IMG/VR virus record: IMGVR_UViG_3300035670_000139
Direction: 5' to 3' (one strand)
Source: a virus
Taxonomy: Duplodnaviria > Heunggongvirae > Uroviricota > Caudoviricetes
DNA length: 64,000 nt
The notes under the pieces are model-generated. The model was not told where the DNA came from. It worked only from the letters and a program-made list of their open reading frames with translations, and searched no databases. Every line of letters begins with the position of its first letter. Positions within the stretch are counted from its first letter, which is position 1. Below, piece by piece: positions 5,463 to 58,339 of this stretch. Both the position numbers and the translations under genes were made by a program.

Positions 5463-5483
5463 ATAATATTTTTAATTTAAAAA

Positions 5484-29000: not shown

Positions 29001-30398
29001 GGAGCTACTGATAAAACTTTTACTTATAATAACACTTTGCAATCTTTTCAAAGTAGTGAAAATATTAGTATCCCTAGTGGTAAAGACTTTTATATTGGCA
29101 ATACTAAATATGCTGATACCACTAAAACATTAACACAAACAACATTTACACTTGATGGAACCAGTGGTAATGTATTAAATGGGATAAAAAATGATAATAT
29201 TGCAGCTGATGCTGCTATAGATGCTAGTAAAATGGGAGATGGCACAGTAAGTAATACAGAATTTTCATATATTGGCACACTTGTGTCTGATGCCCAAACT
29301 CAACTTAATGGTAAGCAACCTGCATCATCTACATTAACAACATTAGCTGGCACTCTAAATCCTGAAACTTTAACAAAATTTGGTGCAATACCTTTAACTT
29401 CTGCCGATAGTGGAAAAATACCTCAAGTTGATGCCAATGGCAATATAGTTTTTAACGCTCCAACAAGTGGTGGTAATGTAAGCGTAACAGGTTTAACAAA
29501 TGCTAGTGGTAAGGCTCCAGTATTTAACAATGCAAACGGAACGGGTCTTGCATTACTGGATACAACAGTAGCTTTAAATAAATTAAATTACAGTAAAAGT
29601 ACTGGTACAATACCAACTTTATCAACCACTGAAAGAGATGCTTTGGTAGCAAGTGGTGATTTAACTGAAGGAAGTAATATTATTAATTCAACGGAAAATA
29701 TTTTACAAATTTATCGTAATAATGTTTGGACTTCTGGCTATAAAAATACAGTTTCAACAAAATTAATTGGCTGGCTTACATCTGGCACAAATGCTGGTGG
29801 AACATTATTAGGTAATGCTACATGGTTTAATAACTCATCTTTTGCTGGCTTGCGATCTTATGTGGTGCAATTGACATCCAATGCCAATGGTCAAAAAGGT
29901 ATTTGGTATAAAAATATCCTTAGTCTTTCTACTACAAAAAGAGTTAAAGCTACTTTAAATTATCAAGTAGGAGGAGGGTCGGGGGCTGATGGCATGTGGA
30001 TTTCGTTTTTTGCAAACACAATACCTACTACGACTAATCTTCCAACAACAGCAAACAATTCTTATACAATATATATCAATGAATATAATGCTCAAATGCT
30101 TTTATACTACAACGGAGCTCAAATAAAAGTTGAAGGTTTTAACGGTTTAGACTTTGGTGGTGCTAGTAATTATGTAAGGCAAATGGAATTTACTTTAGCT
30201 TATGATTACAATACATCATTAATGTATATTGAAGTTGTAATTAAAACAGCCTACGGTGGTAACGGGATGGTATTTTCACATCAGGATACTGTTGTTAGAA
30301 ATTTAACGGGAACTTATTGTATCTGTGGCGGACTAACTGGTGGACTTAATAACTACCATATTATAAAATATTTTGATATTGAACCTTATTTTGATTAA
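26049..30398 (+). CDS. Long tail fibre protein (1449 aa) with internal sequence repeats
   Basis: Ser/Thr/Asn-rich. Contains ~40-aa repeats NTSDVNTALN.K.DKTS..N.LTST..TDALSAAQGK.L.D (3-4 copies) and repeated 'DxxKIxxxxIxxxxI' fibre-type segments. It is the largest gene, at the end of the tail module. Confidence 0.7.
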   Translation: MPNPQDTRNITDPSLVNSNPANDDIIVSANKISGKTQTMRVDLFAKTADLANKPNKSASPTANNIKTMDAQGNDLNSGKTIADLEPAIVKNTAFNKNYSTNLSDLKQNGNASLGTNDTLVRSDHVHPSDATKADLSYVNTQLNTKANTSDVNTALNTKIDKTSIENTLTSTDTTKVLSAAQGKILNDNKANTSDVNTALNLKLDKTSVINNLTSTSITDALSAAQGKVLQDAKLDKTSVKDTLISTSTTDALATSAGKQLKDLVDTKANSADIATLAQNAVINNGIASTNQTYSSSVIEERLSNLPQGGGSGISYYVSNVSSDIATYKVLDTSPISATGTLTATANNNQVLLQSFATAILNRTLLNSGFWEFNFACSIDSNPTASKVSNLVVELYTRDGATETLLNSITTEAITSTNKIEINAILAQQQITITATTRIVIKIFAKTTETKNVLFTLFYGGTDSHVHTPFKLTKADIGLSQVQDVDTTKASNIAIDGVFLSNNAAITTGDSLKTASQKAQGQIEALQSGKQNTLTLVDTARIDLTLSGSNLSADIIAGSIGTTQLADNGVTTAKIIDNAITNSKVASGIDTSKITQATYLDNTNQLNNGDNLDVALNKIQYQAKDALHKNTTNEINNLTAKTSVIDTDVILAENSANVFSKIKITFANIWNYIKSKDSNVKNWYVHNTNGNDSNNGYSPNNAFLTLDKATTSLGNTGEALNWLLGQFSTSVTFNQLNVDIKGDNANKGAATGTSGTVTSSNASSSQRYSNLAFGAFTKTGAGQAYLENVNITGTLNDTSAGYLKYKNGSIGSLSITGTGIKVFEDFELNGTVAINNSLVSVSFNGVGRAITLSTANAISLTAGTLSIRNMIIYCPANTVFGASGVNFLFDNVQFINPATGFAQVITIPAGVNYSLQNCEYDPTSSINGTDISSTRIKRFGNIFAKIIEITSATIDTLIIKGKTFSLNNITNPTNASADGSGVIVKGATDKTFTYNNTLQSFQSSENISIPSGKDFYIGNTKYADTTKTLTQTTFTLDGTSGNVLNGIKNDNIAADAAIDASKMGDGTVSNTEFSYIGTLVSDAQTQLNGKQPASSTLTTLAGTLNPETLTKFGAIPLTSADSGKIPQVDANGNIVFNAPTSGGNVSVTGLTNASGKAPVFNNANGTGLALLDTTVALNKLNYSKSTGTIPTLSTTERDALVASGDLTEGSNIINSTENILQIYRNNVWTSGYKNTVSTKLIGWLTSGTNAGGTLLGNATWFNNSSFAGLRSYVVQLTSNANGQKGIWYKNILSLSTTKRVKATLNYQVGGGSGADGMWISFFANTIPTTTNLPTTANNSYTIYINEYNAQMLLYYNGAQIKVEGFNGLDFGGASNYVRQMEFTLAYDYNTSLMYIEVVIKTAYGGNGMVFSHQDTVVRNLTGTYCICGGLTGGLNNYHIIKYFDIEPYFD

Positions 30399-33395: not shown

Positions 33396-33597
33396 CTTCT
33401 AAAGCATTAATAACATATAACAAGTCTTCTTCTTGTTTAAAATACAATATAACTTCTTTGCAAGTTAAGTGTAAAGTAAGTGTCAAACCATCTTGCTTAC
33501 AGCTAATATAATCATATAACACAACTGGATATTCTATGTTTTCCATTAGCTCGTTATAAGCTTTAATTCTTAAAATTGGATTTGTTTTATTTTGCAT
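33364..33597 (-). CDS. Hypothetical small protein
   Basis: 77 aa; overlaps both flanking genes in operon fashion. Confidence 0.35.
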   Translation of the reverse strand: MQNKTNPILRIKAYNELMENIEYPVVLYDYISCKQDGLTLTLHLTCKEVILYFKQEEDLLYVINALEDAIHTYQRIS

Positions 33598-34447
33598 AGT
33601 TTTTTAAAAAAACATTACAAATTTGCTGAAAGTCTCTTTTGGACAAATTATAATCTTGTGCTTGTCCTTTAAAATCATTGTGAATAATATGTGGTATTGC
33701 TTCTAATTGTGTTTTAGAAAATTTTACGGCTTCTTTTTCGTGCTCTATAAAAGCTTGATACACTACTGGACACCATTGTTCAATAATGCTATCAATTACT
33801 TTTGCATATTCTTGTATTTCTTTTTGAGCGTGAGGATGGTCACGAAGTTTAATAAAATGCAATAAATTTTTAAGATTTGTTTTGTAATAAAACTCTGTAT
33901 AAGCCCCTACGGACATATTGATACGATTTATCTCTTTTGCTAAATCTATTTTTTCACTATTAAAATAATTATAATTGTCTATAAAATTTTGATTTGTATT
34001 TTTTACAATATTTATAAAAACATCTGCACCTATAGTATCTAGTGCCTCTTGGCTACTGCATTGCTTATTAGTTTTACTTTGTTTTGTTAAGCGACTTACA
34101 TCAGGGATATAAAAACTATCTTTAACCTCAGTATATCTTGCTGATATTTCATTGTAAGACGCCATTCTGTGTCGCATCCATTGTCTTGCAACAAAAATCG
34201 GAGCTTTAATATGCAATTCAATTTCACACATTTCAAAAGGACTTGAATGGTTATGTTTCATCAGATAGTTAATCAATTTAGCATTTTCTTCTTGCGTGTG
34301 TGGTTTATTATTTGCATCATAGCTTACTCTTGCTGCCTTTACAACAGACTCATCACTTCCCATATAGTCAATTAATTTAATAAATCCTTTATCAAGCACT
34401 TTGTGTTCTTTGTCAAGAAGATAGTCTATGTGGTTGTATTTAGACAT
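33587..34447 (-). CDS. thyX: Flavin-dependent thymidylate synthase ThyX
   Basis: ThyX signature RHRMASYNEISARY (RHR-x7-S-x-RY) within ARQWMRHRMASYNEISARY. 286 aa. Confidence 0.85.
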   Translation of the reverse strand: MSKYNHIDYLLDKEHKVLDKGFIKLIDYMGSDESVVKAARVSYDANNKPHTQEENAKLINYLMKHNHSSPFEMCEIELHIKAPIFVARQWMRHRMASYNEISARYTEVKDSFYIPDVSRLTKQSKTNKQCSSQEALDTIGADVFINIVKNTNQNFIDNYNYFNSEKIDLAKEINRINMSVGAYTEFYYKTNLKNLLHFIKLRDHPHAQKEIQEYAKVIDSIIEQWCPVVYQAFIEHEKEAVKFSKTQLEAIPHIIHNDFKGQAQDYNLSKRDFQQICNVFLKNYAK

Positions 34448-34466
34448 AATTTTAATGATAAATATA

Positions 34467-35576
34467 TTAATTGCAAAATAGTTTAGATTTTAAAATATTA
34501 ACTAACCAATTGTCCCAATATTTAGTATCGCACTTTTCTGGAAATGTTGAATTTTTACTTAAATCTTGAACTTTTTCTATTAACTCTTCTAATTTTACAT
34601 TTATCTTATCATCAATATAATGAAATTCCCCTTGTTTAATTTTTAGTAAAAATTCTTTTTCTTGTAATGGATAAATAAGATTTTGTGTTTCATAAATCTC
34701 TTGTAATTGATAACCAGCCCTAAATGCATGATGGATTGCTTTCCAGTCTATATTTTGATTTTGTCTTGCTAATTCAGCTCTTTCTCCAAATTCCTTACAA
34801 AAATGCGACAATGATTTATAAATAGATTCAATATAATCACTTAAATAAAACTTTTTATCAAAAATTTCATAATAAGATTTTTGCAAATCTAATGAATTAT
34901 CTTCATTATAAAATAAATAAGTTTTAGTATATTCTAAATTCGGAATATTTTGTAAATGAAATATAATTTTTGTTCCTTTTACATTAGAATTACCATTAGC
35001 AATAGCTTCTTGATAAGATTTATAAATAGTTGGAACATTTTCTGGTATTGCATTTGTATTGTGAAAGTGAATATGTTTAAGGTATGCTTGAAAAGTCATA
35101 TCTGCTGGAATTTTTTTACTTTCTTCTATTGTTTTTTCACACCATTCAACTATCTTTTTTGCGGTATCTAATCTAGATCCTTTTATAGAGTATTTAGCTG
35201 CTTGCCCTTTGCAATATCCAATATAAGATTTTAAATTCTTAGAATAAAAAAGATGTCTTTTAGCTTTAAGGTCTTCCCAAACATCAGATGTAATTTCTTC
35301 CCATCCTTGTGGGGCATGTAATGTATCTATTGCATAAGTATCTCCATTAATACACAGTTGTATAAAATAATTTAAAGAAAATAATTGGTCATCAATGTCA
35401 GTGTTAGTATTTTTTGAGTGATGATTATTAGTATTATTAGTAATTGTTTTTTGTATTTTTTGCAATAAGTAGTCTTCAAGAGATGGAAGATATATTCCTT
35501 TATAATCTGTATCTGATTTTATTGTATTTGTGCCGTATAAATGAGAACCATGCTTCATTTTCATTAAAATTTTCAT
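34467..35576 (-). CDS. Predicted nucleotidyltransferase (Pol-beta superfamily)
   Basis: N-terminal MKHGSHLYGTNTIKSDTDYKGIY matches the NTase motif hG[SG]-x9-13-[DE]h[DE]h. 369 aa. Confidence 0.45.
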   Translation of the reverse strand: MKILMKMKHGSHLYGTNTIKSDTDYKGIYLPSLEDYLLQKIQKTITNNTNNHHSKNTNTDIDDQLFSLNYFIQLCINGDTYAIDTLHAPQGWEEITSDVWEDLKAKRHLFYSKNLKSYIGYCKGQAAKYSIKGSRLDTAKKIVEWCEKTIEESKKIPADMTFQAYLKHIHFHNTNAIPENVPTIYKSYQEAIANGNSNVKGTKIIFHLQNIPNLEYTKTYLFYNEDNSLDLQKSYYEIFDKKFYLSDYIESIYKSLSHFCKEFGERAELARQNQNIDWKAIHHAFRAGYQLQEIYETQNLIYPLQEKEFLLKIKQGEFHYIDDKINVKLEELIEKVQDLSKNSTFPEKCDTKYWDNWLVNILKSKLFCN

Positions 35577-47211: not shown

Positions 47212-47634
47212 ATGCAAAAACCATCTTATTATGCAAAACTTGCAATAGACCCGCTTGAATATGCTTACAAAAATAAATTAAATCCATACCAATTTAATGC
47301 AATTAAATACATTACTCGCTACAAAGATAAAAATGGTATAGAAGATTTACAAAAAGCAATACATTGCTTAGAAGAGTTTAAAGAAATACTATGTCAAAAC
47401 AATACAAATCCAACAGTTAGTGAAGTTAGTGCAGAAGTTAAGTTTGCAATAGACCCTTTTGAATACGCTTATAAAAATAAACTAAATGAATATGAGGTGA
47501 ATGCTATTGGATATATAACTTACTCTGCTCTGGAAAAAGCAATAACTATTTTACAGAAATACTCCGCTCTAGAAAAAGCAATAACTATTTTACAGAAATT
47601 AATTCAAATTGAAACAGAAAATCAAAAACTATAA
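47212..47634 (+). CDS. DUF3310-like phage protein with internal duplications
   Basis: AIDPLEYAYKNKLNPYQFNAIKYITRYKDKNGIEDLQKAIHCLEEF matches the DUF3310 pattern. The motif repeats (AIDPFEYAYKNKLNEYEVNAIGYIT), and a 39-bp tandem duplicate at 47521-47598 (YSALEKAITILQK x2) follows. Confidence 0.5.
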   Translation: MQKPSYYAKLAIDPLEYAYKNKLNPYQFNAIKYITRYKDKNGIEDLQKAIHCLEEFKEILCQNNTNPTVSEVSAEVKFAIDPFEYAYKNKLNEYEVNAIGYITYSALEKAITILQKYSALEKAITILQKLIQIETENQKL

Positions 47635-47636
47635 CA

Positions 47637-47897
47637 ATGGACACCAAGACGATAAACAATCGATGGAGATATCGTAGACGGATAGCAATCACATCCGCTA
47701 TCTTTTTGTTTTTACTTGAGATTGTTGCTATTGCTAAATTAATATCTTTGCCTTTTGACAAACTTACAATGGAGCATGTGATTTTCTTTGTTATAGCAAC
47801 AATACCACTTCTTGCTATTGTATTAGTTTATTTCATTGCATCAACTTTTGATGATGTTAAGGTGTTTTTGATTGATAGATTAAAACACAAAGATTAA
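47637..47897 (+). CDS. Small membrane protein
   Basis: 86 aa with two TM helices. Confidence 0.4.
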   Translation: MDTKTINNRWRYRRRIAITSAIFLFLLEIVAIAKLISLPFDKLTMEHVIFFVIATIPLLAIVLVYFIASTFDDVKVFLIDRLKHKD

Positions 47898-49000
47898 CTA
47901 TGGGCAGCTTTGTATAACATATCGTAGTGGTCTTCAAAAAAAGCATCCTTACCCATTTTTAAAGCATCCCAAGCTTCAATCCACTCAACACTACTTGCAT
48001 CATCTCCAGCTTTTACTGCATTAATATCATAGTCTTTTGGTAATAATGTAGTATAGAGTGTTGTAATTACTCTACCACGACGACTACGATTTGGGTTGTC
48101 AAAATTGCAGAATAACCGCACATGTAGACGATCAGCTATAACTAACCCAGTCTCTTCTTTTAACTCACGCAAAGCACATTCTTTTAATGTTTCATTTTGA
48201 TTAACAAACCCACCTGGTAAAGCATAAAGTCCTTTGCCAGGTGTTTTACCCCTTTTAATTAATAATACTTTACATTCGTAATTATGGTATTGAAATACTG
48301 CAATATCAGCAGTGTGCTCTATGCGAGGATATTGCTTAACTTCTTCTTGATAGTTTGCATAATAGACATCGTCCTCAGTAATTAAACCTGCCTCAATGTA
48401 TTTTTTTTGCATTTCAAGATAGTCATTCATAGAAAGCCAAAAACAAATGTATTTTTTTTGCATTTCAAGGTAATCATCCATAGAAAACCAAAACCACGAG
48501 TATTGTTTAAAAACTGGCGTATTTGTAAAAAATTCTTTTCTTTTATCTTTTGCACTTATCACTTTACCATTTTCTAAATACGGCTCAACTTCAATCACAT
48601 TATCAAAGATTTTAGCATCTTTAATTAAGTCAATATAATTTGCTGTTTTATCATCTTTTTTGCAAGTAATTAAGTTAATTTGACTATCTTTATTGTTGTT
48701 TTTTATATCTTGTATTGTGTTTTTAATGCAATTTATCCATTCTGCGTCAGTGTCGCAATCTTGAACTGGTAATATTTCTTTTACCTTATTTGTTGGCCAT
48801 AAGCATTTACACAAAATTTTAATGTCTAACTCGTGTTTTCGCTCTTCAAAAGTAAATGGATTGCAAACATCTCTTGATTTATCAGCCGAACCAACTAAGA
48901 TATAAACTTCACTATAATTTTCACAAGCTTTTGCTATTAAAGCTAAATGCCCCTCGTGAACTAATTGAAATCTACCTAAAACGACATTAATAATTTTCAT
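47894..49000 (-). CDS. natV: Bifunctional NMN adenylyltransferase / Nudix hydrolase (NatV-like)
   Basis: N-terminal H-x-G-H nucleotidyltransferase motif (GRFQLVHEGHLAL). C-terminal Nudix box GKGLYALPGGFVNQNETLKECALRELKEETGL. A 17-aa in-frame tandem duplication lies in the linker (48397-48498). Confidence 0.8.
   Translation of the reverse strand: MKIINVVLGRFQLVHEGHLALIAKACENYSEVYILVGSADKSRDVCNPFTFEERKHELDIKILCKCLWPTNKVKEILPVQDCDTDAEWINCIKNTIQDIKNNNKDSQINLITCKKDDKTANYIDLIKDAKIFDNVIEVEPYLENGKVISAKDKRKEFFTNTPVFKQYSWFWFSMDDYLEMQKKYICFWLSMNDYLEMQKKYIEAGLITEDDVYYANYQEEVKQYPRIEHTADIAVFQYHNYECKVLLIKRGKTPGKGLYALPGGFVNQNETLKECALRELKEETGLVIADRLHVRLFCNFDNPNRSRRGRVITTLYTTLLPKDYDINAVKAGDDASSVEWIEAWDALKMGKDAFFEDHYDMLYKAAHS
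48397..48498 (-). repeat. 51-bp x2 in-frame tandem duplication inside natV
   Basis: atgtattttttttgcatttcaag[a/g]ta[g/a]tcat[t/c]catagaaa[g/a]ccaaaa.. repeated, encoding FSMDDYLEMQKKYICFW / LSMNDYLEMQKKYIEAG. Confidence 0.85.
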
Positions 49001-49028: not shown

Positions 49029-50027
49029 CTATTCTAAAATATTTCGCATTGCAACGTTAATTGCATCACTGCGTAATATTTGTTGTAAATATTCCCGTTT
49101 ATCTGATTGTAAATATTCACACATCATTTTATATCCTGCACCTTCTAAACCATAAGTCTTTACTGGTTTAAACAATGAAAAATCATAACCCATATCGTGC
49201 ATTTTTAATATATTTAAAAGATTTTCCGAGTTTTGTTTAAAAATACTTTTCCATAATACTCTATTTGATTGACACAATCTAAATAAATTTTTTTGCAAAT
49301 ATTCGTGTTCTACCCAGTCTTGTGATATTTGCTGTAGGGCATTATTTAATTCAGTATCGTGTTCTTTATTAATTATATCATTTAATGCAAAACAAAATAA
49401 TTGTGGAAAGTGTGAAGTCCAAGCAACAATTTTATCGTGCAGTTTAAGTGTATCACAGGTTGAAGGTTGTATTGTAATTTGTGCATTTTCAACAATATCT
49501 TGCCACATTATAATCATTAAACAATATGGCATATAACAATATAAGCGGTCTATATTATTATATTTTGTAAAAATAACTGTATTCCCCCCTTTATGTAAAT
49601 CTGCTTTACTATTTATAAAACCTGTTTTTTCGCTACCTGCCATAATATGAACGGATGTAAAATTATTATTATCACACCATTTTGATATCCAATTTTTTAC
49701 TGAACTTACATCGCATACATGTAATGCTAAAGTAAATATTTGTAATTCAAACTCAAGATGTATTCTTACATTATCACTTGGAGGTGTTGCAACAATTGCA
49801 ATATCAAATAAATTTTCTTGAAAATCTGCAGGATTGTATTGTTTTGGCTCAATATCAATGCTTCTACAATAATTAATAAAACTTTCCATATTGTCTTCAG
49901 ACATATATGGGTCGTAAATTGTTACATCATAAACACGCTCACCTTCTTGATGTATTTCTGTTAATCTTTTAAAAATAGAGCCTCCAATTAAACCAATTCC
50001 AATAATTAAAACTTTTTGCATAATCAA
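49029..50027 (-). CDS. Prephenate/arogenate dehydrogenase (TyrA)-family NAD(P)-binding protein
   Basis: N-terminal Rossmann motif VLIIGIGLIGGSI. TyrA core motifs HIMAGSEKTG (HPMAGSE.sG) and LHDKIVAWTSHFPQL (HD..vA.vSHLPH). Confidence 0.55.
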   Translation of the reverse strand: MIMQKVLIIGIGLIGGSIFKRLTEIHQEGERVYDVTIYDPYMSEDNMESFINYCRSIDIEPKQYNPADFQENLFDIAIVATPPSDNVRIHLEFELQIFTLALHVCDVSSVKNWISKWCDNNNFTSVHIMAGSEKTGFINSKADLHKGGNTVIFTKYNNIDRLYCYMPYCLMIIMWQDIVENAQITIQPSTCDTLKLHDKIVAWTSHFPQLFCFALNDIINKEHDTELNNALQQISQDWVEHEYLQKNLFRLCQSNRVLWKSIFKQNSENLLNILKMHDMGYDFSLFKPVKTYGLEGAGYKMMCEYLQSDKREYLQQILRSDAINVAMRNILE

Positions 50028-50043
50028 AAATAAAAATAAAAAA

Positions 50044-51309
50044 TTAAATCAATATTCCGTCTTTTGCAGAGTAGACTAAATCCATTTTAGAAGTGTCAAT
50101 CCTTCCTTTAATAGATTTTTTACCGCTATCGGTAATCGGGTCTTTGTAGACATCTTGCCAAACTTCTTTTCCGTCTATATTCAGACAAATTGCAGATGTT
50201 TTATAAGCAAATTTTAAAGTATCCCTACTGCAATTTTGCATTAAATCACCACCAGAGCCAAAGACAAAATTAGCAGGTGAAAACATTTTATCAGTAAAGT
50301 GTTGTAAAATATTTTCTATTTGCTTTGCGGTAATACCATCTCCCCAAAGAATACGATATTTTTTAAATAATTTGTAACCTTTGTCATTTGTAGTAAATTG
50401 CACTTTATTTTTATCAAAAATTTCTAACATTTTTGTAATAACTTCAATAGGGTTGCCACTGTCAGGTCTAATAACCCAAATCGGATAAGAATTACTTTCA
50501 ATTCTATCTTTCATGGAACCTGATGTTTGAAAATCTGTTGCTTTGTAAATATCATAGCTATCAGATACACAAGCGACAATAGAATAACTTTTAAATGTTT
50601 CTAATAAATTTTCCATTGCTTTAAATTCATTTTCCCTGCCCCAGCTCGTAATAGTTGAATGCTCCGATGCAGGAACGGAAAAGCCAGTTTTTGCATGTAA
50701 GACTGCATTAAAGTTATCAGTCCCTTTAAATTGAGTTAAATGAGCCATGCCACCTATTTTAGCACTTTCAACACTACTTGAACCTCTATCTCCAAAGTTG
50801 TGATAAGCAAAATCAACCCCAGCCACATCCTCGCCAGCTTTTTGATAAAAAGATGTTATCATTTGTTTAATGTAATAACATCTTGTTGCTATTGTAGTCG
50901 GATACCAAAGTTTCAACAAGTAAGTTTCTAAAAAAGAAGGCAACCAAAAATAGTTGTTATCGGTATTTTCTACAACAAGCAAAGGTTGTGAAATGTCGTG
51001 TAATTCATTTTCTTTTACCGCATATATATTGATAGGTAAATGTATATGTCCTTTTTTATTTTGTAAATTCAAACCATCAAAACCTTCTTTGTTATATGGT
51101 AAGCCATGTTGCTCTACAAGTTTTTGCCAATCTATTAGTCCATTTTGATATGTATTTAAACCATATAAATGTTCTTTTAAACCAGTAAAAAACACTTTTT
51201 TGAAGCCTTCGTCTGAGCCTCTGGCGGAAAGATAACAATGTATTTTTTTTGTGTTTTTAGGGTATTGTAAATAATGTGAAAATTTGTAAGAGTCCGTTAA
51301 GTGTAGCAT
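50044..51309 (-). CDS. nadV: Nicotinamide phosphoribosyltransferase (NAMPT/NadV)
   Basis: N-terminal LHLTDSYKFSHYLQYPKNTKKIHCYLSARGS matches NAMPT (NTDSYK.tHy.QYP). 421 aa. Confidence 0.8.
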   Translation of the reverse strand: MLHLTDSYKFSHYLQYPKNTKKIHCYLSARGSDEGFKKVFFTGLKEHLYGLNTYQNGLIDWQKLVEQHGLPYNKEGFDGLNLQNKKGHIHLPINIYAVKENELHDISQPLLVVENTDNNYFWLPSFLETYLLKLWYPTTIATRCYYIKQMITSFYQKAGEDVAGVDFAYHNFGDRGSSSVESAKIGGMAHLTQFKGTDNFNAVLHAKTGFSVPASEHSTITSWGRENEFKAMENLLETFKSYSIVACVSDSYDIYKATDFQTSGSMKDRIESNSYPIWVIRPDSGNPIEVITKMLEIFDKNKVQFTTNDKGYKLFKKYRILWGDGITAKQIENILQHFTDKMFSPANFVFGSGGDLMQNCSRDTLKFAYKTSAICLNIDGKEVWQDVYKDPITDSGKKSIKGRIDTSKMDLVYSAKDGILI

Positions 51310-51326: not shown

Positions 51327-52124
51327 TTACAAAGCATTATTAAAAATATCAAAACAATCAATAACTTGCAACTTCTCGTTATCTTGCGGTTCAAGAATAC
51401 TTGTTGAGTTTGTTGTGATAATTTTGTTGATATTGTTACATATTTTTTGCATTTTATATCCATAAATTTCATTATCATACATTCTATCTATTTTTGATGG
51501 TCGTATTGTTTTAATTAAAAATCTTTTCGGAACAAAACAATGCAACACAAACACATTCACCTCCTCAACTCCGTATTTTTCTTTCAACTCTTTGGCGATT
51601 TGATTTGCTTTTTGAAGCTCGGATTGTGTGCCGTGATGGAGGAAGATTGTAAGTTTTGTAAAATCTTCTATTCCAGTGCAATCCGAAGAAGTGCAAACTA
51701 ATTTATTACAACGATGTTCTATTTTAGGATAAACAAATACACGAGAATAATCTATAGTATTTGTTAATTTGTCCGTGTAATATGTTTCGCAATCCTCACT
51801 ACTCAAAAACAAAACCGCATTATCCTCAGGGATATATTTTGAAAGGTTGGGAGTTATGTCGTCTAAAGTATAAATATTTTCAAACGATGGTAAAAAATCA
51901 ACTGCAGCAACATTTGGAAAGTAAGGTAAATATAGATTACAAAATTCAGTATAAGGATATAATTGTAAAAATGGAGTTATATCTAAAAATGGATTTAGTT
52001 CCCCAACCTTCAAATCAATATACAAATCTTTTGCATTTGTAAAATCAAAAGCCTTAGTGCATTCCTTGTCTTTAAAAAACTCAACTTCTAAAAGCTCATT
52101 GCGTTTGTGGTATATTTTTTGCAT
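51327..52124 (-). CDS. Paralog family A, copy 1 (unknown function; conserved C-terminal ITTNSTSILEPQ..KLQVIDCFDIF module)
   Basis: 265 aa. N-terminus MQKIYHKRNELLEVEF matches copy 2. The final ~97 bp is ~96% identical to a segment in copy 2. Confidence 0.55.
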   Translation of the reverse strand: MQKIYHKRNELLEVEFFKDKECTKAFDFTNAKDLYIDLKVGELNPFLDITPFLQLYPYTEFCNLYLPYFPNVAAVDFLPSFENIYTLDDITPNLSKYIPEDNAVLFLSSEDCETYYTDKLTNTIDYSRVFVYPKIEHRCNKLVCTSSDCTGIEDFTKLTIFLHHGTQSELQKANQIAKELKEKYGVEEVNVFVLHCFVPKRFLIKTIRPSKIDRMYDNEIYGYKMQKICNNINKIITTNSTSILEPQDNEKLQVIDCFDIFNNAL

Positions 52125-52130
52125 ATAATA

Positions 52131-52547
52131 CTATAAATAAGTTTTGATAATTTCATTAATATCATTCTCTGTTATTACTCCACCAGTTTTTACTCTAATT
52201 CTTAAATTTCGCAAAACAGCAGAGTAGTTATATGGTAAAGCAATAAGGCTATTAGCTAAAACTTCACTATATTTTCCACCATATAATTTGTTATCATATT
52301 CCGATTGCCACACTTTTGCTATTTCTCGTAATCCATCCAAGCATCTCTTAATTTCAAACACTTCTGGCAAGTCTTCATCGTTTTCCGTTATAATAGAAAT
52401 CAACTCAGATATTCTATCTAAAAAAGGACACACCACATAAAGTTCATTTTTACTATTTCTAATTTTAAGCGGTGGAACATTTTTCTTTTTTGTCATATAA
52501 TAATTAAGAAATTTCTGTAAAAGTTTCATATAAAGATAACGCCCCAA
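52131..52547 (-). CDS. Paralog family B, copy 1 (unknown function)
   Basis: 138 aa. The N-terminal YMKLLQKFLNYY is shared with the ORF at 53697-54011. Confidence 0.45.
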   Translation of the reverse strand: MGRYLYMKLLQKFLNYYMTKKKNVPPLKIRNSKNELYVVCPFLDRISELISIITENDEDLPEVFEIKRCLDGLREIAKVWQSEYDNKLYGGKYSEVLANSLIALPYNYSAVLRNLRIRVKTGGVITENDINEIIKTYL

Positions 52548-52674
52548 TAAAAAACTGTGCTGCTGTTAAATTGCGAGTTTTTAAAATATTATGATATTTT
52601 TCCGCAACCTTTTTTGTCAAATGCAAAACTAACATTTCCTCACCTTCTTCTAGGTCTATTTTAGTTATATCCAT
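52504..52674 (-). CDS. Possible small ORF between A2 and B1 (internal Met start)
   Basis: Track ORF 52504-52734 starts inside A2 on duplicated DNA. The internal Met (MDITKIDLEEGEEMLVLHL...) gives a 56-aa product. Uncertain. Confidence 0.2.
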   Translation of the reverse strand: MDITKIDLEEGEEMLVLHLTKKVAEKYHNILKTRNLTAAQFFIGALSLYETFTEIS

Positions 52675-52697
52675 ATTATGCCAAACAAAAATAATAA

Positions 52698-52890
52698 AAT
52701 TACAAAGCATCATTAAAAACATCAAAACAATCAATCACCTGCAACCTCTCGGTATTTTTAGGTTTAAGAAGTCCTGTTGAGTTAGTTGTTATGAAAGCAT
52801 CATTAAAAATATCAAAACAATCAATAACTTGCAACTTCTCGTTATCTTGCGGTTCAAGAATACTTGTTGAGTTTGTTGTTATGATTTTGT
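52698..52890 (-). repeat. ~96-bp tandem duplication of the A-family 3' coding end (third copy at 51326-51428)
   Basis: 52794-52890 is ~96% identical to 51326-51428, and 52698-52795 is a more diverged copy. Together they encode IITTNSTSILEPQDNEKLQVIDCFDIFNDA / FITTNSTGLLKPKNTERLQVIDCFDVFNDAL. Confidence 0.85.
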
Positions 52891-53662
52891 CAAAAGGCAA
52901 TTTTGATATATACTCTTTTTGTCTTTTTGTAAAATCTTCTTTAAAACTTTTTTCACTACCTACAATGATACCAATATCAATACAAAATTTGTATGCCTCA
53001 TCTGCTGACTTAGAATACATTTCGTTAGCAAAAGACATATAACTTTGTTCCAAATCACTTTCTTCTAAAAAACAGTGTAATCTAAACAAATTTACTTCTT
53101 TAACTCCGTATTTTTCTTTCAACTCTTTGGCAACTTCATTTGCTTTTTGAAGTTCAGCTTGTGTGCCATGATGGAGGAAGATGGTTACTTTATTAATAGG
53201 ATTTTTTACAAACTCATTAATAGCATCAATACTTCCTTTAAGTGTTACTTCATCAAGCCCATCATTAGCATAAAGTCCAATATAATGACCTTGAAAACAT
53301 TGCATATATCTTTCACAGTTCTCACCACTCAAAAACAAAACTGCATTATCCTCAGGGATGTATTTTGATAAATTAAATTTATATCCAGTCTCGTCACATT
53401 GTATATCATTTAAAGTTATTAAAAGAATTTTTGAATTAAAGTTATCTTTATATCCTAAATACCAACATGGAGTGTATATTACTGCACTTAAATCTAAAGC
53501 AAAAAGTTTATTACTTAAAGCTATAGCTGGAGTGCAATCCCCATCCTTCAACTCAATATACAAATCTTTTACATCCGTAAAATCAAAAGGGATTTTGCAG
53601 TCTTTATCTTGGTAAAACTCAACTTCTAAAAGCTCGTTGCGTTTGTGGTATATTTTTTGCAT
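52700..53662 (-). CDS. Paralog family A, copy 2 (320 aa; C-terminal module duplicated in tandem)
   Basis: Shares the N-terminus, the PEDNAVLFLS[SG]E[DN]CE motif, TIFLHHGTQ[SA]ELQKAN[QE][IV]AKELKEKYGV and the C-terminal module with copy 1. Confidence 0.55.
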   Translation of the reverse strand: MQKIYHKRNELLEVEFYQDKDCKIPFDFTDVKDLYIELKDGDCTPAIALSNKLFALDLSAVIYTPCWYLGYKDNFNSKILLITLNDIQCDETGYKFNLSKYIPEDNAVLFLSGENCERYMQCFQGHYIGLYANDGLDEVTLKGSIDAINEFVKNPINKVTIFLHHGTQAELQKANEVAKELKEKYGVKEVNLFRLHCFLEESDLEQSYMSFANEMYSKSADEAYKFCIDIGIIVGSEKSFKEDFTKRQKEYISKLPFDKIITTNSTSILEPQDNEKLQVIDCFDIFNDAFITTNSTGLLKPKNTERLQVIDCFDVFNDAL

Positions 53663-53696
53663 ATAATAATTAAGAATTTAGTATTTTTAATATTTT

Positions 53697-54011
53697 TCAA
53701 GAAGTATAGTAGTAATCATAACAGTAACTACCATAATAGTCACTACTTTTATTTTCAATATCAAACAATGGTAATTTTTTTTGTTTCATAAATTTATTTG
53801 CTTTTTGTATTGTTTTAATATCTGTTTTTAATGGTCTAAACATGTGTAATGTATTACTATCATCATCGCATATTGTAGCCCAAGGCGATACTTGTTTTGC
53901 GTGAATATGTAATCTATATGGTGGTTTATTATATTTATGGTATGTTGGTTTCTTGTAATAATTAAGAATTTTTTGTAAAAGTTTCATATAAAAATAATAA
54001 AAACTAACCAA
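53697..54011 (-). CDS. Paralog family B, copy 2 (104 aa, diverged)
   Basis: Shares the N-terminal YMKLLQKILNYY with B1. Confidence 0.4.
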   Translation of the reverse strand: MVSFYYFYMKLLQKILNYYKKPTYHKYNKPPYRLHIHAKQVSPWATICDDDSNTLHMFRPLKTDIKTIQKANKFMKQKKLPLFDIENKSSDYYGSYCYDYYYTS

Positions 54012-54576
54012 TTAATTTACTTATATTTTCCCAAACTTGTGAAGTTTGCTCGTGAAGTGGTTTTACGATGTCAAAATACCAATATATCATTTCTTCATCT
54101 TCATCTCCATCTTCTTGTTCTAAATATTTAATTATTTCTATACAAATACAATGATTGTCCAAGCGTTTTTTTTCGGGTAATATACATGTGTTTTTAACTG
54201 CAATATCTATATCTTGTATTGTAATTTTATTATCATTTTTAAGGTTTGATAACAAAAGTAAAATATCTTCAAGAGTTATTGGTCTGCCAAGAATTTCAAA
54301 ATTATATTCATATTGCCAATCGTAAGGTTCGTTTTGGTCTTGATATGTAAAATCAGTACATCTATAATAGTCTTTTCTTGAGGGCGTATGCCTTGTAAGT
54401 GTATTGTCAGCAATATTAAGACCATATATATTTGCTTTGGCATTATAAAACAAACAACCATCTTGATGAGCCTCCATCTTTAAAGCCTCCTCCAAAGATT
54501 TTACCTCAGGATGTCTATTCATCATAACCTTTTCCCATATTTTTTTGTAATGCGGGTTTTCTAGTGCTTTTTGCAT
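54004..54576 (-). CDS. Hypothetical protein, first gene of the minus-strand operon
   Basis: 190-aa ORF with an acidic C-terminal stretch (EQEDGDEDEE). Confidence 0.45.
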   Translation of the reverse strand: MQKALENPHYKKIWEKVMMNRHPEVKSLEEALKMEAHQDGCLFYNAKANIYGLNIADNTLTRHTPSRKDYYRCTDFTYQDQNEPYDWQYEYNFEILGRPITLEDILLLLSNLKNDNKITIQDIDIAVKNTCILPEKKRLDNHCICIEIIKYLEQEDGDEDEEMIYWYFDIVKPLHEQTSQVWENISKLIG

Positions 54577-54593
54577 ATAATCAAAATTACAAA

Positions 54594-54693
54594 TGGCGTC
54601 CGTTCTTTGACTTCATTGTTTTATTACCAGTAAAACAGTTAAAGGTTGTGATTACACAAGAAGAACGGACATAGAACTTTAACTTTTACTGGT
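54594..54693 (-). promoter_or_regulatory. Structured 5' leader (10-bp stem GTCCGTTCTT/AAGAACGGAC enclosing 53 nt; alternative 10-bp pairing ACCAGTAAAA/TTTTACTGGT)
   Basis: Stem halves at 54598-54607 and 54661-54670. The alternative pairing is 54626-54635 with 54684-54693, which cannot form at the same time as the first stem. It lies between the predicted transcription start and the ATG at 54576. Confidence 0.35.
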
Positions 54694-54699
54694 GATTAA

Positions 54700-54728
54700 A
54701 TTGTAAAGGGTTGTATTTCAAAAGTCAA
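54700..54728 (-). promoter_or_regulatory. Sigma70-like promoter (minus strand): TTGACT, 17-nt spacer, TACAAT
   Basis: The reverse complement of 54723-54728 is TTGACT; the reverse complement of 54700-54705 is TACAAT. The upstream sequence AAATAATCTTTTT is shared with the minus-strand promoter at 55548-55576. Confidence 0.5.
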
Positions 54729-54828
54729 GTAAAAAGATTATTTTTTTTGTTAAAATGGTTGATTAGTCAAATCCATTGCTGTCTCAGTCCAAATTTTAAA
54801 GCTTTCCAAAGCTTGGTGAAATAACATA

Positions 54829-55503
54829 TTATTTTGCATTTAAAACACTACCAACAGGATACACTTCTTTATTTTTAATTAACACAAGGTCTGTTTGTGG
54901 ATTAATACCAAACCATCTAACAAGCACACCAGAGAATAAGTCGTATCTTAAAGCATTTAATTGTTGCAATTTAGTATAATATTCCTCTCCATATTGAGAG
55001 TTTGCTATCTCTAATAACTCGTGTGCTAAAATATTTTGTCTATCTATTAACGCTTCAAGATTTTTTAATTTTTCACCACTTCCTCTTTCAATATCCCCTA
55101 ACCCATTAAAACCATTAACATTTTGAGACAATGGTGCAGAGTAAATTGATATTCCGTTTAAATTTTCAACTTTAACTTGAACTTGATATTTATCAGCTAC
55201 TTTGTTGATTAGTGCCTCAGTTTTTAATAATTCTCTTTTAGCATTATTATATTTTGCTACATTGATTGATATAGGTTTCATATAGGTAACCTCAGTAATT
55301 AATGTGTTATATTTGTTAATTGATGGTAATATGGAATCAGTTAAGCTCACGTGTTGAAAAAGCATTTGTATTATAAAAAACACTCCACAAAGCATTCCAA
55401 AACCTATTGAGGAATCAGAACCTTGTTTTTCTTTTTTTATTGTTAATGTTAAACATACTGTAGATATAATTAGGAACACACTGGTAATCAAAAGATAAAA
55501 CAT
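54829..55503 (-). CDS. Membrane-anchored coiled-coil protein
   Basis: N-terminal TM helices plus a coiled-coil region. 224 aa. Confidence 0.45.
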   Translation of the reverse strand: MFYLLITSVFLIISTVCLTLTIKKEKQGSDSSIGFGMLCGVFFIIQMLFQHVSLTDSILPSINKYNTLITEVTYMKPISINVAKYNNAKRELLKTEALINKVADKYQVQVKVENLNGISIYSAPLSQNVNGFNGLGDIERGSGEKLKNLEALIDRQNILAHELLEIANSQYGEEYYTKLQQLNALRYDLFSGVLVRWFGINPQTDLVLIKNKEVYPVGSVLNAK

Positions 55504-55547
55504 ACTTCTTACAATAATAATACAAAATTTTACAAAATACTTGTAAA

Positions 55548-55576
55548 ATCTTAATCTATTGCTTCAACAATGTCAA
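55548..55576 (-). promoter_or_regulatory. Sigma70-like promoter (minus strand): TTGACA, 17-nt spacer, TAAGAT
   Basis: The reverse complement of 55571-55576 is TTGACA; the reverse complement of 55548-55553 is TAAGAT. About 40 nt upstream of the start at 55503. Confidence 0.45.
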
Positions 55577-55657
55577 GCAAAAAGATTATTTAAAAAATTC
55601 TTGATATTTCAAAAATACTACTTTACAATCTAAAATAATATTATTGAATGTAAAAAT

Positions 55658-56317
55658 ATGTTAGCAACTGCAATTTTAAGTAGTATAGGTGGAATGTTGG
55701 GTGGAATAGCACAAGATTGGACAAAATACCATATAGATAAAAAAGAAAAAAATAATCAAAATGAATTAGAAATTAAAAAAACAAAAGAACTTGCTGACTA
55801 TCAATTTGAACTTGATAAAAAAAGAGCAGAGGCTAATCTTGATTTAGCTAATATTGATTTGCAAAAAACACAAATAGAAGCTAATATACAACAATCTAAT
55901 TTAGCTATAGCTGAGCAAACAACAGAACAAAGTTATTTCAATAACATTACTCAAGCAACAATTGACCCTCTTGATTATCAAGTGCCATTTTTACAAATGC
56001 AACCTTATACAGACTCCACACTTGCAAATACTGTTATTGGATTTACTAATTTTATATATGGTCTTGTAAATGCTACAATTGGTTTATGCGGTATTGTTAA
56101 ATATTTAAGAGAAAGTTTAACTCTTACTAGACCTTATCTTACTGGGGCTTTATTCTTTGCATTTGTTAATAGCATTCCATTATTAGCACCAGAGGATCAA
56201 AAAGAAGCGGTTGCATGCTTAGCATACACCTTAGACTTTGTTTTAGGTTTTTGGTTTTACGGAAGACGAAGTGAAAAAATGGGTAATATATTTCAAAAAA
56301 AAAAATTAATACCATAA
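55658..56317 (+). CDS. Membrane protein upstream of endolysin (holin/lysis-accessory candidate)
   Basis: N-terminal TM (ILSSIGGMLGGIA), coiled coil, C-terminal TM helices. Immediately precedes the lysozyme gene. Confidence 0.35.
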   Translation: MLATAILSSIGGMLGGIAQDWTKYHIDKKEKNNQNELEIKKTKELADYQFELDKKRAEANLDLANIDLQKTQIEANIQQSNLAIAEQTTEQSYFNNITQATIDPLDYQVPFLQMQPYTDSTLANTVIGFTNFIYGLVNATIGLCGIVKYLRESLTLTRPYLTGALFFAFVNSIPLLAPEDQKEAVACLAYTLDFVLGFWFYGRRSEKMGNIFQKKKLIP

Positions 56318-56319
56318 AT

Positions 56320-56871
56320 ATGCAAAATAAAATAAATCAAAACAATGTTCGATTAAACACAACTCAGCCAAAGGTATTGCCTTCTAAACCAGATTTAAAA
56401 ACAAAAGCAATAGAAAAAGCATTTAATTTTCTTAAGCAACCTAATATTGAGGGCATTAAGTTAAAATCATATCAATGTCCCGCAGGCGTATGGACTATTG
56501 GAATTGGAACAACTGTTATTAATGGTAAGCCAGTCACAAGCAATTTAACTATAACATTAAAAGAAGCGGAGGAGTATTGTAAAAAAGATATTGAAAAATG
56601 TTTAAATTCAATCTGGTCTGATGTATGGTCTTATAATGCTAATCAAATTGCAGCTATAATATCTTTTGTGTATAACTTTGGATATGGTGCTTGGCAAAGT
56701 TCAACTTTAAGAAAGATTATTGTAGCAAATCCAAATAATTTTGACGCTATAGCAAATCAATTTAGAAGGTGGATTTATGTAGCGGATCCAAATACAAAAC
56801 AAAAAAAGGAATCAAATGGTTTAATAAATCGTAGAAAATTGGAGATTCAATTATATTGTAGCAATATTTAA
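56320..56871 (+). CDS. Endolysin, GH24 (T4/lambda-type) lysozyme family
   Basis: IEGIKLKSYQCPAGVWTIGIGTT matches the T4-lysozyme core ([21 protein letters not shown]), with the catalytic Glu in IEG. Confidence 0.7.
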   Translation: MQNKINQNNVRLNTTQPKVLPSKPDLKTKAIEKAFNFLKQPNIEGIKLKSYQCPAGVWTIGIGTTVINGKPVTSNLTITLKEAEEYCKKDIEKCLNSIWSDVWSYNANQIAAIISFVYNFGYGAWQSSTLRKIIVANPNNFDAIANQFRRWIYVADPNTKQKKESNGLINRRKLEIQLYCSNI

Positions 56872-56872
56872 C

Positions 56873-56901
56873 TTGACATTTAGAATAATATTATATAGCA
56901 T
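56873..56901 (+). promoter_or_regulatory. Sigma70-like promoter: TTGACA, 17-nt spacer, TAGCAT
   Basis: acTTGACAtttagaataatattataTAGCAT, upstream of the gene at 56941. Confidence 0.4.
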
Positions 56902-56940
56902 TTACCAGTAAAATATTACTAAGTTTTTTTAAAGTTAAAT

Positions 56941-57819
56941 ATGTTTTCAAAAGCTACATTAAAAAAAATTGTCTCCGCAGCTTTAAATGAGAATGATGCA
57001 ATTTTTTTTCTTGATAACAACACTTGCAAAAAATACAAAAAATATTTTACAAAGCATAAAGTATATTCTATTGAAAACACTAAAGAAATTAAAGAGATTA
57101 GCAAAGGTAATGGAACCGCAATAATCTTTATAGAGTCTTATAACGATACATCTATTTTACAAGCAAACAAAGTAGCAAAAATCTTTAAAGATAGCGAAAA
57201 ATATGCTAAAGTATGTGTTTTAGCTTTAGAATGTGGCGAGGTAAAACCAGTGCCTTTATATGTAATTTTATATTTTGATGTATTAATTACAACAAATTCC
57301 ACAGGGGTTTTACAACCTCAAAAGATAGAAGATTTAATTGTTATAGATGTAAGTCAAGAAATTCAACAAGACAATAAAAACAAGCAAAGATTGCAAAAAT
57401 ATCGTGATAAATTTTTTGATTTCTTGGGGTATCCTCTGTCAGCAATGGCACATTCCTTTATATTTTTAGTAATAATCAGTAATTTACACGATTATGGAAT
57501 AATCAAAACATATAATACTTCTAATGTTTTAACAGTAATGGCATTAAGCGGATGCTTGCTTTGGATTTTAACTCAATTATCATTTGTTATATCTAATTAT
57601 GTTATTAAAGCTTACAATTCAACGACACAAACTATTGAACCAAGTAAAATGACCGCTACTTCAAAAATCGGACAAGTTATAGAAAAAATATTATCTTTCG
57701 TAGCTTTTATCATTATTTTTCCAATTATATCTACTATAGATTTAATAATAACAAGTGTTGGTATTATTGACAAACTTTGTCTAAAAGTTAAAAGTTTGTT
57801 TAGCATTAAGAAAACATAA
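56941..57819 (+). CDS. Membrane protein whose N-terminal domain is homologous to the A-family C-terminal module
   Basis: TAIIFIESYNDTSILQANKVAKIFKD...VLITTNSTGVLQPQKIEDLIVIDV parallels TIFLHHGTQAELQKANEVAKELKE...IITTNSTSILEPQDNEKLQVIDCFD. The C-terminal half has 3-4 TM helices. Confidence 0.5.
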   Translation: MFSKATLKKIVSAALNENDAIFFLDNNTCKKYKKYFTKHKVYSIENTKEIKEISKGNGTAIIFIESYNDTSILQANKVAKIFKDSEKYAKVCVLALECGEVKPVPLYVILYFDVLITTNSTGVLQPQKIEDLIVIDVSQEIQQDNKNKQRLQKYRDKFFDFLGYPLSAMAHSFIFLVIISNLHDYGIIKTYNTSNVLTVMALSGCLLWILTQLSFVISNYVIKAYNSTTQTIEPSKMTATSKIGQVIEKILSFVAFIIIFPIISTIDLIITSVGIIDKLCLKVKSLFSIKKT

Positions 57820-57838: not shown

Positions 57839-58339
57839 ATGAATGACGCATTTGATTTATTTGCGGAAAAATACACTTCAACACTTTGCGGAATTGTTGC
57901 TTTTGTTGTGTCTATATTTACTATCAAATATAATAATCCCGTAGTGCTGGCTTGGCTTGATATTACTAGGTGGTTTTTGTTTGGATCTGGAGTTTTGAAT
58001 TTTATTTATTTCCCTATTTTTGTAAAAAACGCAGTAAAAGCATCTACATTTGATGATGATATAGATATGTTTTATCCAGCATTACAACTGTTAGAGCAAC
58101 ATCCGCAAGAAAAAAAAAGATTTTACAGACATTTTGACAAAATCACATATAGCTCTTTACTTGTAGCTATAATAACAATGTTCTACCCAAATCTTTGTAA
58201 TTTTTACCAGTATCACACGATATACATATCAATTACTATGGGGCTTACGGCGTATATGTTCTCGCAAATTGTTATTGTATATGTAATTTTGGATAAATTC
58301 AAAAAATACTCTCGGAAAGCTCGTAAGCAATCTAAGTAA
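57839..58339 (+). CDS. Multi-pass membrane protein
   Basis: 166 aa with ~4 TM helices and a basic C-terminus. Confidence 0.4.
   Translation: MNDAFDLFAEKYTSTLCGIVAFVVSIFTIKYNNPVVLAWLDITRWFLFGSGVLNFIYFPIFVKNAVKASTFDDDIDMFYPALQLLEQHPQEKKRFYRHFDKITYSSLLVAIITMFYPNLCNFYQYHTIYISITMGLTAYMFSQIVIVYVILDKFKKYSRKARKQSK

Follow-up and report, generated by a model that had tools for sequence, protein, structure and literature searches.

The closest described counterparts of the phage protein module considered here are the phosphoribosyl pyrophosphate (PRPP) synthetases (PRPS or Prs) and other proteins built on the same scaffold. The C-terminal domain of these enzymes, as in S. solfataricus Prs (4TWB), B. 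subtilis Prs (1DKR), and human PRPS1, combines a type I phosphoribosyltransferase (PRTase) fold with a strand-strand-helix unit. PRPS is an obligate hexamer, and so is Adps, the NARP1 ADP-ribose pyrophosphate (ADPR-PP) synthetase, a phage-encoded enzyme demonstrating that the PRPS scaffold can be repurposed (PMC13586617). In Adps, the acidic pair and the following loop (Asp212, Asp213, and Asp216) hold ribose-5-phosphate, Asp161 is the aspartate of the SPD, or pyrophosphate (PP), loop, Arg87 and His121 belong to the N-terminal domain, and the catalytic lysine is Lys185 in the structural paper, Lys162 for SpβL1 Adps in the first NARP paper, and Lys197 in B. subtilis Prs (PMC13586617; bioRxiv 10.1101/2024.02.11.579819). 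NARP2, in turn, consumes PRPP (bioRxiv 10.1101/2024.02.11.579819). Also relevant for comparison are the human proteins PAP39 and PAP41 (PRPSAP1/2; 2C4K), full-length and recognizable PRPS paralogs that assemble with PRPS, and the type I PRTases HGPRT, OPRT, and APRT together with the PRTase-fold effector domain of PurR, all of which retain the PRPP-binding loop. A PRPS-like fold encoded beside a gene of the NAMPT family is the current rule of thumb for phage reconstitution of nicotinamide adenine dinucleotide (NAD+) of the Adps/Namat kind. Here we describe a module with a predicted PRPS-like fold that is encoded three times, in the genes A1, A2, and ORF3, within a 64,000-nucleotide stretch of a Caudoviricetes genome (IMG/VR record IMGVR_UViG_3300035670_000139; hereafter, the window), where A1 adjoins a NAMPT-family gene, nadV. 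We estimate, with a probability of roughly one half, that the modeled module is a very divergent homolog of the PRPS C-terminal domain, most likely serving as a non-catalytic module that binds a ligand or a partner protein.

The structure of the module was predicted with AlphaFold2 for residues 1-150 of ORF3, using an alignment of 119 diverse sequences. The model (predicted local distance difference test score, pLDDT, 89.4; predicted template modeling score, pTM, 0.86) consists of a five-stranded parallel sheet followed by a strand-strand-helix tail, and a Foldseek comparison with the Protein Data Bank (PDB) matched it to PRPS1, PRPS2, and 1dkr at template modeling scores of 0.60-0.64. PAP39 is the second-best structural match. 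HGPRT, OPRT, APRT, and PurR scored below PRPS. The independent full-length model of A1, which served only as a secondary check, is of low confidence (pLDDT 57.7), yet it retrieved the same five chains first. As modeled, the module adopts a type I PRTase fold, and its nearest counterpart is the PRPP synthetase C-terminal domain, whose PRPS-specific strand-strand-helix it shares. An initial annotation of this DNA, made from the sequence without database searches, had anticipated a beta-alpha-beta, Rossmann-like fold of the kind found in nucleotide enzymes and had pointed to TIR, SLOG, and nucleoside 2-deoxyribosyltransferase (NDT) proteins as possible relatives. The first expectation is borne out by the prediction of an alpha/beta fold of the nucleotide-enzyme type, whereas the best match turned out to be PRPS rather than TIR, SLOG, or NDT.

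At the sequence level, the signals are weak, albeit in the same register as the fold result. The fold test was prompted by a likeness noticed by eye between the module string 'IITTNST..L.P....L.VID' and the PRPS C-terminal 'VVTN[ST]I.....Q[VL][IS][DV]', and three pairs of collinear motifs can be recognized ('SHCF' and 'THP', 'ITTNST' and 'VVTN[ST]I', 'L.VID' and 'QVID'). In a single hhalign comparison, module residues 79-146 were placed on residues 237-303 of B. subtilis Prs (E = 0.04); the profile of the A family, which comprises A1, A2, and their homologs, reached a probability of 0.2% against a single Prs and E values of 0.04 to 0.41 against an alignment of three Prs sequences identical to the PDB chains. 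Taken alone, the hhalign results are not significant. BLASTP of an ORF3 homolog (P0123) against human PRPS1 paired RMENACFDVLITTNS with RINNACFEAVVVTNT (PRPS1 residues 260-274; E = 0.005). Single-sequence (phmmer) and profile searches of PDB sequences with module proteins returned only noise, and hidden Markov model (HMM) searches, a check that the initial annotation had proposed, gave no meaningful match in Pfam, PHROGs, NCBIfam, or PADLOC. The families Pribosyltran_N (PF13793), Pribosyl_synth (PF14572), and Pribosyltran (PF00156) were detected neither in A1, A2, and ORF3 (E <= 1) nor in 38 divergent family members (E <= 0.01). Pfam hits to TRAPPC-Trs85 (E = 0.0015) and Phage_Gene33 (E = 0.053) fell under the cut-offs of these families and were discarded. 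Two local equivalences were also considered and abandoned. Because the model has a helix before the 'ENDA' strand, 'IPEDNA' does not correspond to 'IPVDNL', and 'IPEDNAVLFLS' aligns with 'NLEDIVIVSPD'. The notion that the N-terminal domain of the A proteins is a shortened Prs N-domain ('IPYLP' matching 'IPYFGYARQDR') required forced extension of the alignment and had no statistical support. Between the Prs N-domain and the 93 N-terminal residues of A1 and A2, no significant similarity was seen.

The catalytic signature of PRPS is missing from the module, as judged from column statistics on 108 A-type and 11 ORF3-type sequences. The ribose-5-phosphate loop, DD[IM][IA]DT[AGC]GT, is absent after the central strand in the register given by secondary structure and hhalign. 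Starting at the DD position, the aligned residues are E-S-Y-N in the ORF3 type and P/T/S/E/H, H/E/S, G/L/I, and T/H in the A type, and the loop leading to the next helix is shorter than that of Prs by ~5 residues. Likewise absent is the PP loop, S-P-D-x-G-G, the place of which is taken by FLS-E-E-D-x-x-K-Y in the A type and by FLDNNT in the ORF3 type, neither containing glycines, and an acidic residue at this position is only partially conserved. No conserved lysine corresponds to the catalytic Lys197 in the flexible loop of the B. subtilis enzyme; the equivalent region, between strands 2 and 3, varies among A-family members and contains gaps. The N-terminal ATP-binding domain, with its FSDGE flag region, RQDR, and DLH, was not recognized; it is absent in ORF3 and in stand-alone module proteins, whereas A1 and A2 carry an unrelated-looking 90-residue domain in its place. 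Nor does the module contain the PRPP-binding motif of type I PRTases, i.e., an acidic pair and a phosphate-binding turn ending in T-G-x-T, which sets it apart from HGPRT, OPRT, APRT, and PurR. Unlike PAP39 and PAP41, it is a single domain without recognizable sequence identity to PRPS. The comparison with Adps is similar. Adps shares with the module its phage origin, the PRPS scaffold, and a link to a NAMPT-family gene, but it is ~27% identical to B. subtilis Prs, matches PF14572, and retains Arg87, His121, Asp161, Lys185, Asp212, Asp213, and Asp216, as well as a donor-binding loop, none of which is found in the module. The operon partner of Adps is the ADPR-PP-specific Namat rather than Nampt; in the window, the neighbor belongs to the NAMPT family, and an NMNAT-Nudix gene is also present, the pairing known from NARP2. 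With the catalytic loops, the lysine, and the family HMM matches all missing, assignment of the module to PRPS or Adps was rejected. Because the PP loop, the ribose-5-phosphate loop, and the catalytic lysine are lost, and the N-domain is lacking in ORF3 and the stand-alone forms, we infer that the module makes neither PRPP nor ADPR-PP.

Conservation across all architectures extends to hydrophobic core positions, to the TTNSTG loop, which follows strand 5 and is nearly invariant, to Asp136, beyond the last strand, and to a position following strand 4, occupied by His in the A type and by Glu in the ORF3 type. In the model, all conserved polar residues are located at the C-terminal ends of the strands, the usual site of the ligand crevice in such folds. 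Inactive PRPS-associated proteins and the PRTase-fold effector domain of PurR provide precedents for non-catalytic binding. Under the reading that we favor, a crevice lined by the TTNSTG loop, Asp136, and the His/Glu position would accommodate either a phosphorylated ligand (a sugar or nucleotide) or a partner protein. In ORF3, a cytoplasmic module would regulate or scaffold the membrane protein of the lysis cassette; for A1 and A2, the location beside the PRPP-consuming NadV is suggestive of a link to PRPP, although this association is lineage-specific. Any connection of the module to PRPP or NAD+ metabolism, or to the timing of lysis, is putative.

Several points weigh against this interpretation. 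Homology is argued mainly from predicted structure because sequence similarity to PRPS is statistically weak (E values of 0.005-0.04 in single comparisons; hhalign probability of ~1%), and a profile search of PDB sequences found no PRPS. Residue equivalences to the PRPS loops derive from the secondary-structure register and sequence alignment rather than from structural superposition, and the interpretation does not extend to the N-terminal domain that A1 and A2 carry. Finally, a novel type of catalytic site would likewise account for the strong conservation of TTNSTG, of Asp136, and of the His/Cys that follows strand 4. The module could, then, belong to an active enzyme performing non-canonical chemistry on a phosphoribosyl compound (PRPP, ADP-ribose, nicotinamide mononucleotide (NMN), or a nucleotide signal) through these residues and cooperating with NadV and NatV, for example, by supplying or sparing PRPP. 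The PRPS/PRTase fold, the position of the conserved polar residues where such folds have their active sites, and the direct adjacency of A1 and nadV both in the window and in a related locus (L005) are compatible with enzymatic activity, as are the repurposed scaffold of Adps (PMC13586617) and the PRPP requirement of NARP2 (bioRxiv 10.1101/2024.02.11.579819). Nevertheless, we consider this explanation unlikely: the module has neither of the phosphate-binding loops nor the catalytic lysine, ORF3 and the stand-alone forms lack an ATP-binding N-domain, the association with NAD genes is confined to one of 32 loci, and His97/Cys98 is Glu-Cys in the ORF3 type and variable in divergent A members.

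The loss of every canonical ligand-binding loop is also what would be expected of a purely structural domain that has kept the PRPS subunit-contact surfaces and binds no small ligand, multimerizing the A proteins and clustering a holin-like ORF3. PRPS and Adps are obligate hexamers (PMC13586617), the ORF3 copy is joined to transmembrane helices beside the endolysin, and the family readily forms fusions and duplications, all of which would suit an oligomerization domain; however, the TTNSTG loop, conserved in A-type, stand-alone, and ORF3-type proteins alike, is rich in Ser, Thr, and Gly and lies where the strands end, features that point to an anion or ligand site more than to an interface and make this possibility, too, a doubtful one. 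The proposal of the initial annotation that these proteins are TIR-, SLOG-, or NDT-type N-glycosidases cleaving NAD+ or nucleotide signals in counter-defense, which drew only on short pattern resemblances and the nadV/natV adjacency, is highly improbable: the predicted fold contradicts it, with PRPS rather than a TIR fold as the best structural match and no NDT fold, the proposed catalytic Glu is present in only 45 of 108 sequences, Pfam and PADLOC give no match, the association with NAD genes is not recurrent, and nothing beyond gene position speaks for an NAD+-processing enzyme.

The relationship among the three copies is supported by direct comparison. A1 and A2 are paralogs (BLASTP, E = 2e-67), and A1 and A2 each match the N-terminal ~140 residues of ORF3 as well (pairwise E = 2e-5 and 1e-6, respectively). 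In an exhaustive search of 1.84 billion proteins, a profile built from 75 A-type proteins alone retrieved the membrane-type homolog P0133 at E = 4.6e-8 (profile positions 93-257 against residues 11-168), which argues that the relationship between the A and ORF3 types is not due to chance. A six-frame scan of the window identified exactly three module-bearing open reading frames (ORFs) and four TTNST motifs, with no fourth copy of the module. These results uphold the presence of the module in A1, A2, and a membrane protein, as originally annotated, and the motif string given there proved accurate. Its placement in the C-terminal half of A1 and A2 was correct in location but not in boundary: the module is longer and begins with the strand 'IPEDNAVLFLS.ED' (A1 residue ~94, ORF3 residue ~11), which had been ascribed to the N-terminal half.

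At 90% identity, the A family falls into 223 clusters; at 50% identity, it has 166 representatives (E <= 1e-3, in the same set of 1.84 billion proteins). All members are metagenomic and unnamed, except for one entry labeled 'uncultured Caudovirales phage UFOVP286', and A1 itself is 100% identical to a Joint Genome Institute (JGI) metagenome protein, P0046. Among 50,697 deposited phage genomes, no homologs of the region (megablast) or of A1 (tblastn) were found, and a search of IMG/VR returned only three loci. A scan of 185,579 bacterial and archaeal species, one genome per species, produced a single match, on a 7.5-kb contig binned in a Rickettsiales metagenome-assembled genome (L087; JAJTDS010000071.1), which may be a mis-binned phage contig or a hint at the host lineage. 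The family is a new, highly divergent and previously unannotated variant of a known fold, restricted to phages and known from metagenomes only.

Three architectures are observed: the module stands alone, follows a conserved ~90-residue N-terminal domain (A1/A2), or is fused to about three transmembrane helices (ORF3). Proteins of the ORF3 type are rare (15 clusters) and all consist of the module and a membrane region. Most of them contain, between strands 4 and 5, a 19-residue segment, 'NADKTLGSWNERTQRMENAC', that is missing from ORF3 of the window, where the gap lies at 57260-57290 (residues ~107-112); the segment includes the string 'NACF', which gives the best match to human PRPS1. The stand-alone proteins (188-203 residues; L006, 4201-4812, and L068, 1883-2449) have a strand 4-5 connector ('NPPPDWAIVNQDGSFG..KEQKMKNAWFDKLITTNS') closer to the ORF3 type than to the A type. 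One further protein, P0004 (459 residues), is a double-module fusion in which one and a half modules precede a complete one. Together with the other fusions, the stand-alone and double-module proteins indicate that the module is an autonomous domain shuffled between architectures.

The window is a phage contig of low GC content (~28%), and the features discussed here are listed in Table 1.

Table 1 Features of the module-encoding region in the window; extents of the module copies are approximate.
Feature	Coordinates	Strand	Description
natV-like gene	47894..49000	-	NMN adenylyltransferase + Nudix; Pfam NUDIX 4.5e-18, CTP_transf_like 5.1e-8
Prephenate-dehydrogenase-like gene	49029..50027	-	Between nadV and natV; PDH_N, PDH_C; NCBIfam 2.8e-19, well below cut-off
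nadV	50044..51309	-	NAMPT family, directly downstream of A1; Pfam NAPRTase 5.6e-45, NAMPT_N
A1	51327..52124	-	265 aa; ~93-aa N-terminal domain, then PRPS-C-like module
Module copy in A1	51330..51845	-	A1 aa 94-265; aligns with ORF3 residues 11-137; HMM match
g138	52131..52547	-	Small gene directly upstream of A1
A2	52700..53662	-	320 aa; A1 paralog with insertions and duplicated C-terminal unit
Module copy in A2	52703..53371	-	A2 aa 98-320
In-frame tandem duplication in A2	52704..52884	-	Tandem Repeats Finder: period 90, 2.0 copies, 85% matches
g104	53697..54011	-	Small gene upstream of A2
g190	54004..54576	-	Orphan, 190 aa; most often recurring neighbor of A-family genes
Endolysin	56320..56871	+	Phage_lysozyme (Pfam E = 8.7e-30); immediately 5' of ORF3
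ORF3	56941..57819	+	292 aa; N-terminal module and C-terminal region with about three transmembrane segments
Module copy in ORF3 (modeled copy)	56941..57375	+	ORF3 aa 1-145
Membrane-spanning part of ORF3	57421..57771	+	Hydrophobic; aa ~161-277; preceded by Lys/Arg-rich linker

The A genes have been duplicated at two scales. A unit of ~1.5 kb, consisting of a small gene and an A gene, is present in tandem (g104 + A2, then g138 + A1; 51327-54011, minus strand), with direct DNA repeats spaced 1526-1538 nt apart. Similarity between g138 and g104 is confined to their 5' ends and, in the proteins, to the peptide 'YMKLLQK[FI]LNYY' at the N-terminus (47 nt, 89% identity; BLASTP, E = 2e-6). Within A2, the 90-nt tandem repeat duplicates the last 30 residues of the module (ITTNST...LQVIDCFD.FNDA), corresponding to the strand-strand-helix unit, which confirms the earlier observation that the final strand occurs again in A2. 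Compared with the 3' end of A1, the inner copy has 97% identity and the terminal copy only 78%; the duplication is absent from the closest A2 homologs, P0001 and P0002. Two other in-frame tandem duplications bring the number within 6 kb to three: one of 51 nt in the natV-like gene (48395-48508; 2.2 copies, 85-91% matches), which duplicates the peptide 'FWFSMDDYLEMQKKYI' in the stretch that separates the NMNAT domain from the Nudix domain, and one of 39 nt in two copies (47521-47599) within the ORF at 47212-47634.

The genomic neighborhoods of family members suggest that the proximity to NAD genes is a local feature. Among the 32 loci with a length of 5 kb or more, only L005 has nadV/natV beside a family member within the fetched flanks; the other 31 lack both genes there, and recurrence next to NAD-salvage genes, which the initial annotation had proposed as a check, is not seen. 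L005 is a close relative of the window in which the nadV/natV adjacency is kept and an ORF3-type gene again follows the endolysin; in this locus, the A-type gene and the g138 homolog are separated by an inserted IS605-family OrfB/TnpB (Cas12f-like) gene (4747-5907). Elsewhere, the neighbors include genes for beta-clamp, thyX, YopX, ERF, Rad52, YqaJ, SSB, dUTPase, thymidylate kinase, and NinG. There, A-family genes sit in a block of early, replication, and nucleotide-metabolism genes, and the nadV adjacency is lineage-specific context rather than a conserved neighborhood of the family. Neither the window nor the fetched loci yielded a genuine prs gene when searched for one.

A more frequent companion is g190, homologs of which were detected by tblastn within the fetched locus in 11 of the 32 loci of at least 5 kb (L001, L002, L005, L007, L008, L018-L020, L035, L049, and L079), in most of them directly flanking the A gene. 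Searches of Pfam, PHROGs, NCBIfam, and PADLOC and a profile search of the PDB gave no match for g190, and a homolog search did not identify it either. Its family forms 90 clusters, with invariant motifs including 'NPHYKKIWE', 'ILGRPITLEDI', and 'KPLHEQT'. Among phage auxiliary genes, the prephenate-dehydrogenase-like gene is an unusual one; similar genes are found near A-family genes in L003, L058, and L059, and L005 has a shikimate-dehydrogenase-like gene. Other parts of the window encode a DNA methylase, a 1449-residue tail-fiber-repeat protein (26049-30398), and a thyX gene (Thy1, 1.4e-51) adjoining an RlaP-like nucleotidyltransferase gene (PF10127, 1.2e-11; 33587-35576, minus strand).

In ORF3, the module is part of a protein of the lysis cassette. 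The Kyte-Doolittle hydrophobic peaks of ORF3 are located around residues 170, 204-213, and 251-272, with none in residues 1-150, and the gene starts 69 nt past the Phage_lysozyme gene, in agreement with the original description of its C-terminal half as a membrane protein in the lysis cassette. The gap between the two genes is short and has no terminator-like site, and ORF3 is therefore probably co-transcribed with the endolysin; a promoter and terminator scan performed at chance level. The Lys/Arg-rich linker and the positive-inside rule suggest, from sequence, that the module is cytoplasmic. Predicted to lie at the cytoplasmic face of a protein that is probably expressed together with the endolysin, the module could therefore regulate or scaffold the membrane protein of the lysis cassette. 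The endolysin and ORF3 are flanked by two orphan ORFs (55658-56317, plus strand, 219 residues; 57839-58339, plus strand, 166 residues). By eye, the 166-residue protein and the C-terminus of the 219-residue protein look membrane-associated; with a 19-residue hydropathy window, the former has weak peaks and the latter none above 1.6.

These results fill an annotation gap, in that an unannotated phage family known only from metagenomes can now be described as a module resembling the PRPS C-terminal domain, and they remove the TIR/NDT-type NADase hypothesis for this family. They also show that the combination of a PRPS-like fold and a NAMPT-family neighbor has to be accompanied by a check of the catalytic loops before phage NAD+ reconstitution is assumed, since in this family the catalytic signature has been lost and the link to a NAMPT-like neighbor is not a recurrent one. 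The membrane-tethered copy of the module in the lysis cassette of uncultured freshwater phages is unusual. A speculative and quite improbable extension of the binding-module reading is that of a PRPS-derived metabolite sensor, which would read the phosphoribosyl or nucleotide state of the host (PRPP, ADP-ribose, (p)ppGpp, or similar), with ORF3 coupling it to a lysis-cassette membrane protein and thereby setting the timing of lysis and A1/A2 tuning the supply of PRPP for NadV, for example, by docking onto the host Prs in the manner of PAP39/41. If true, such a sensor would represent a new class of phage regulatory domains linking nucleotide metabolism to lysis and NAD+ reconstitution.

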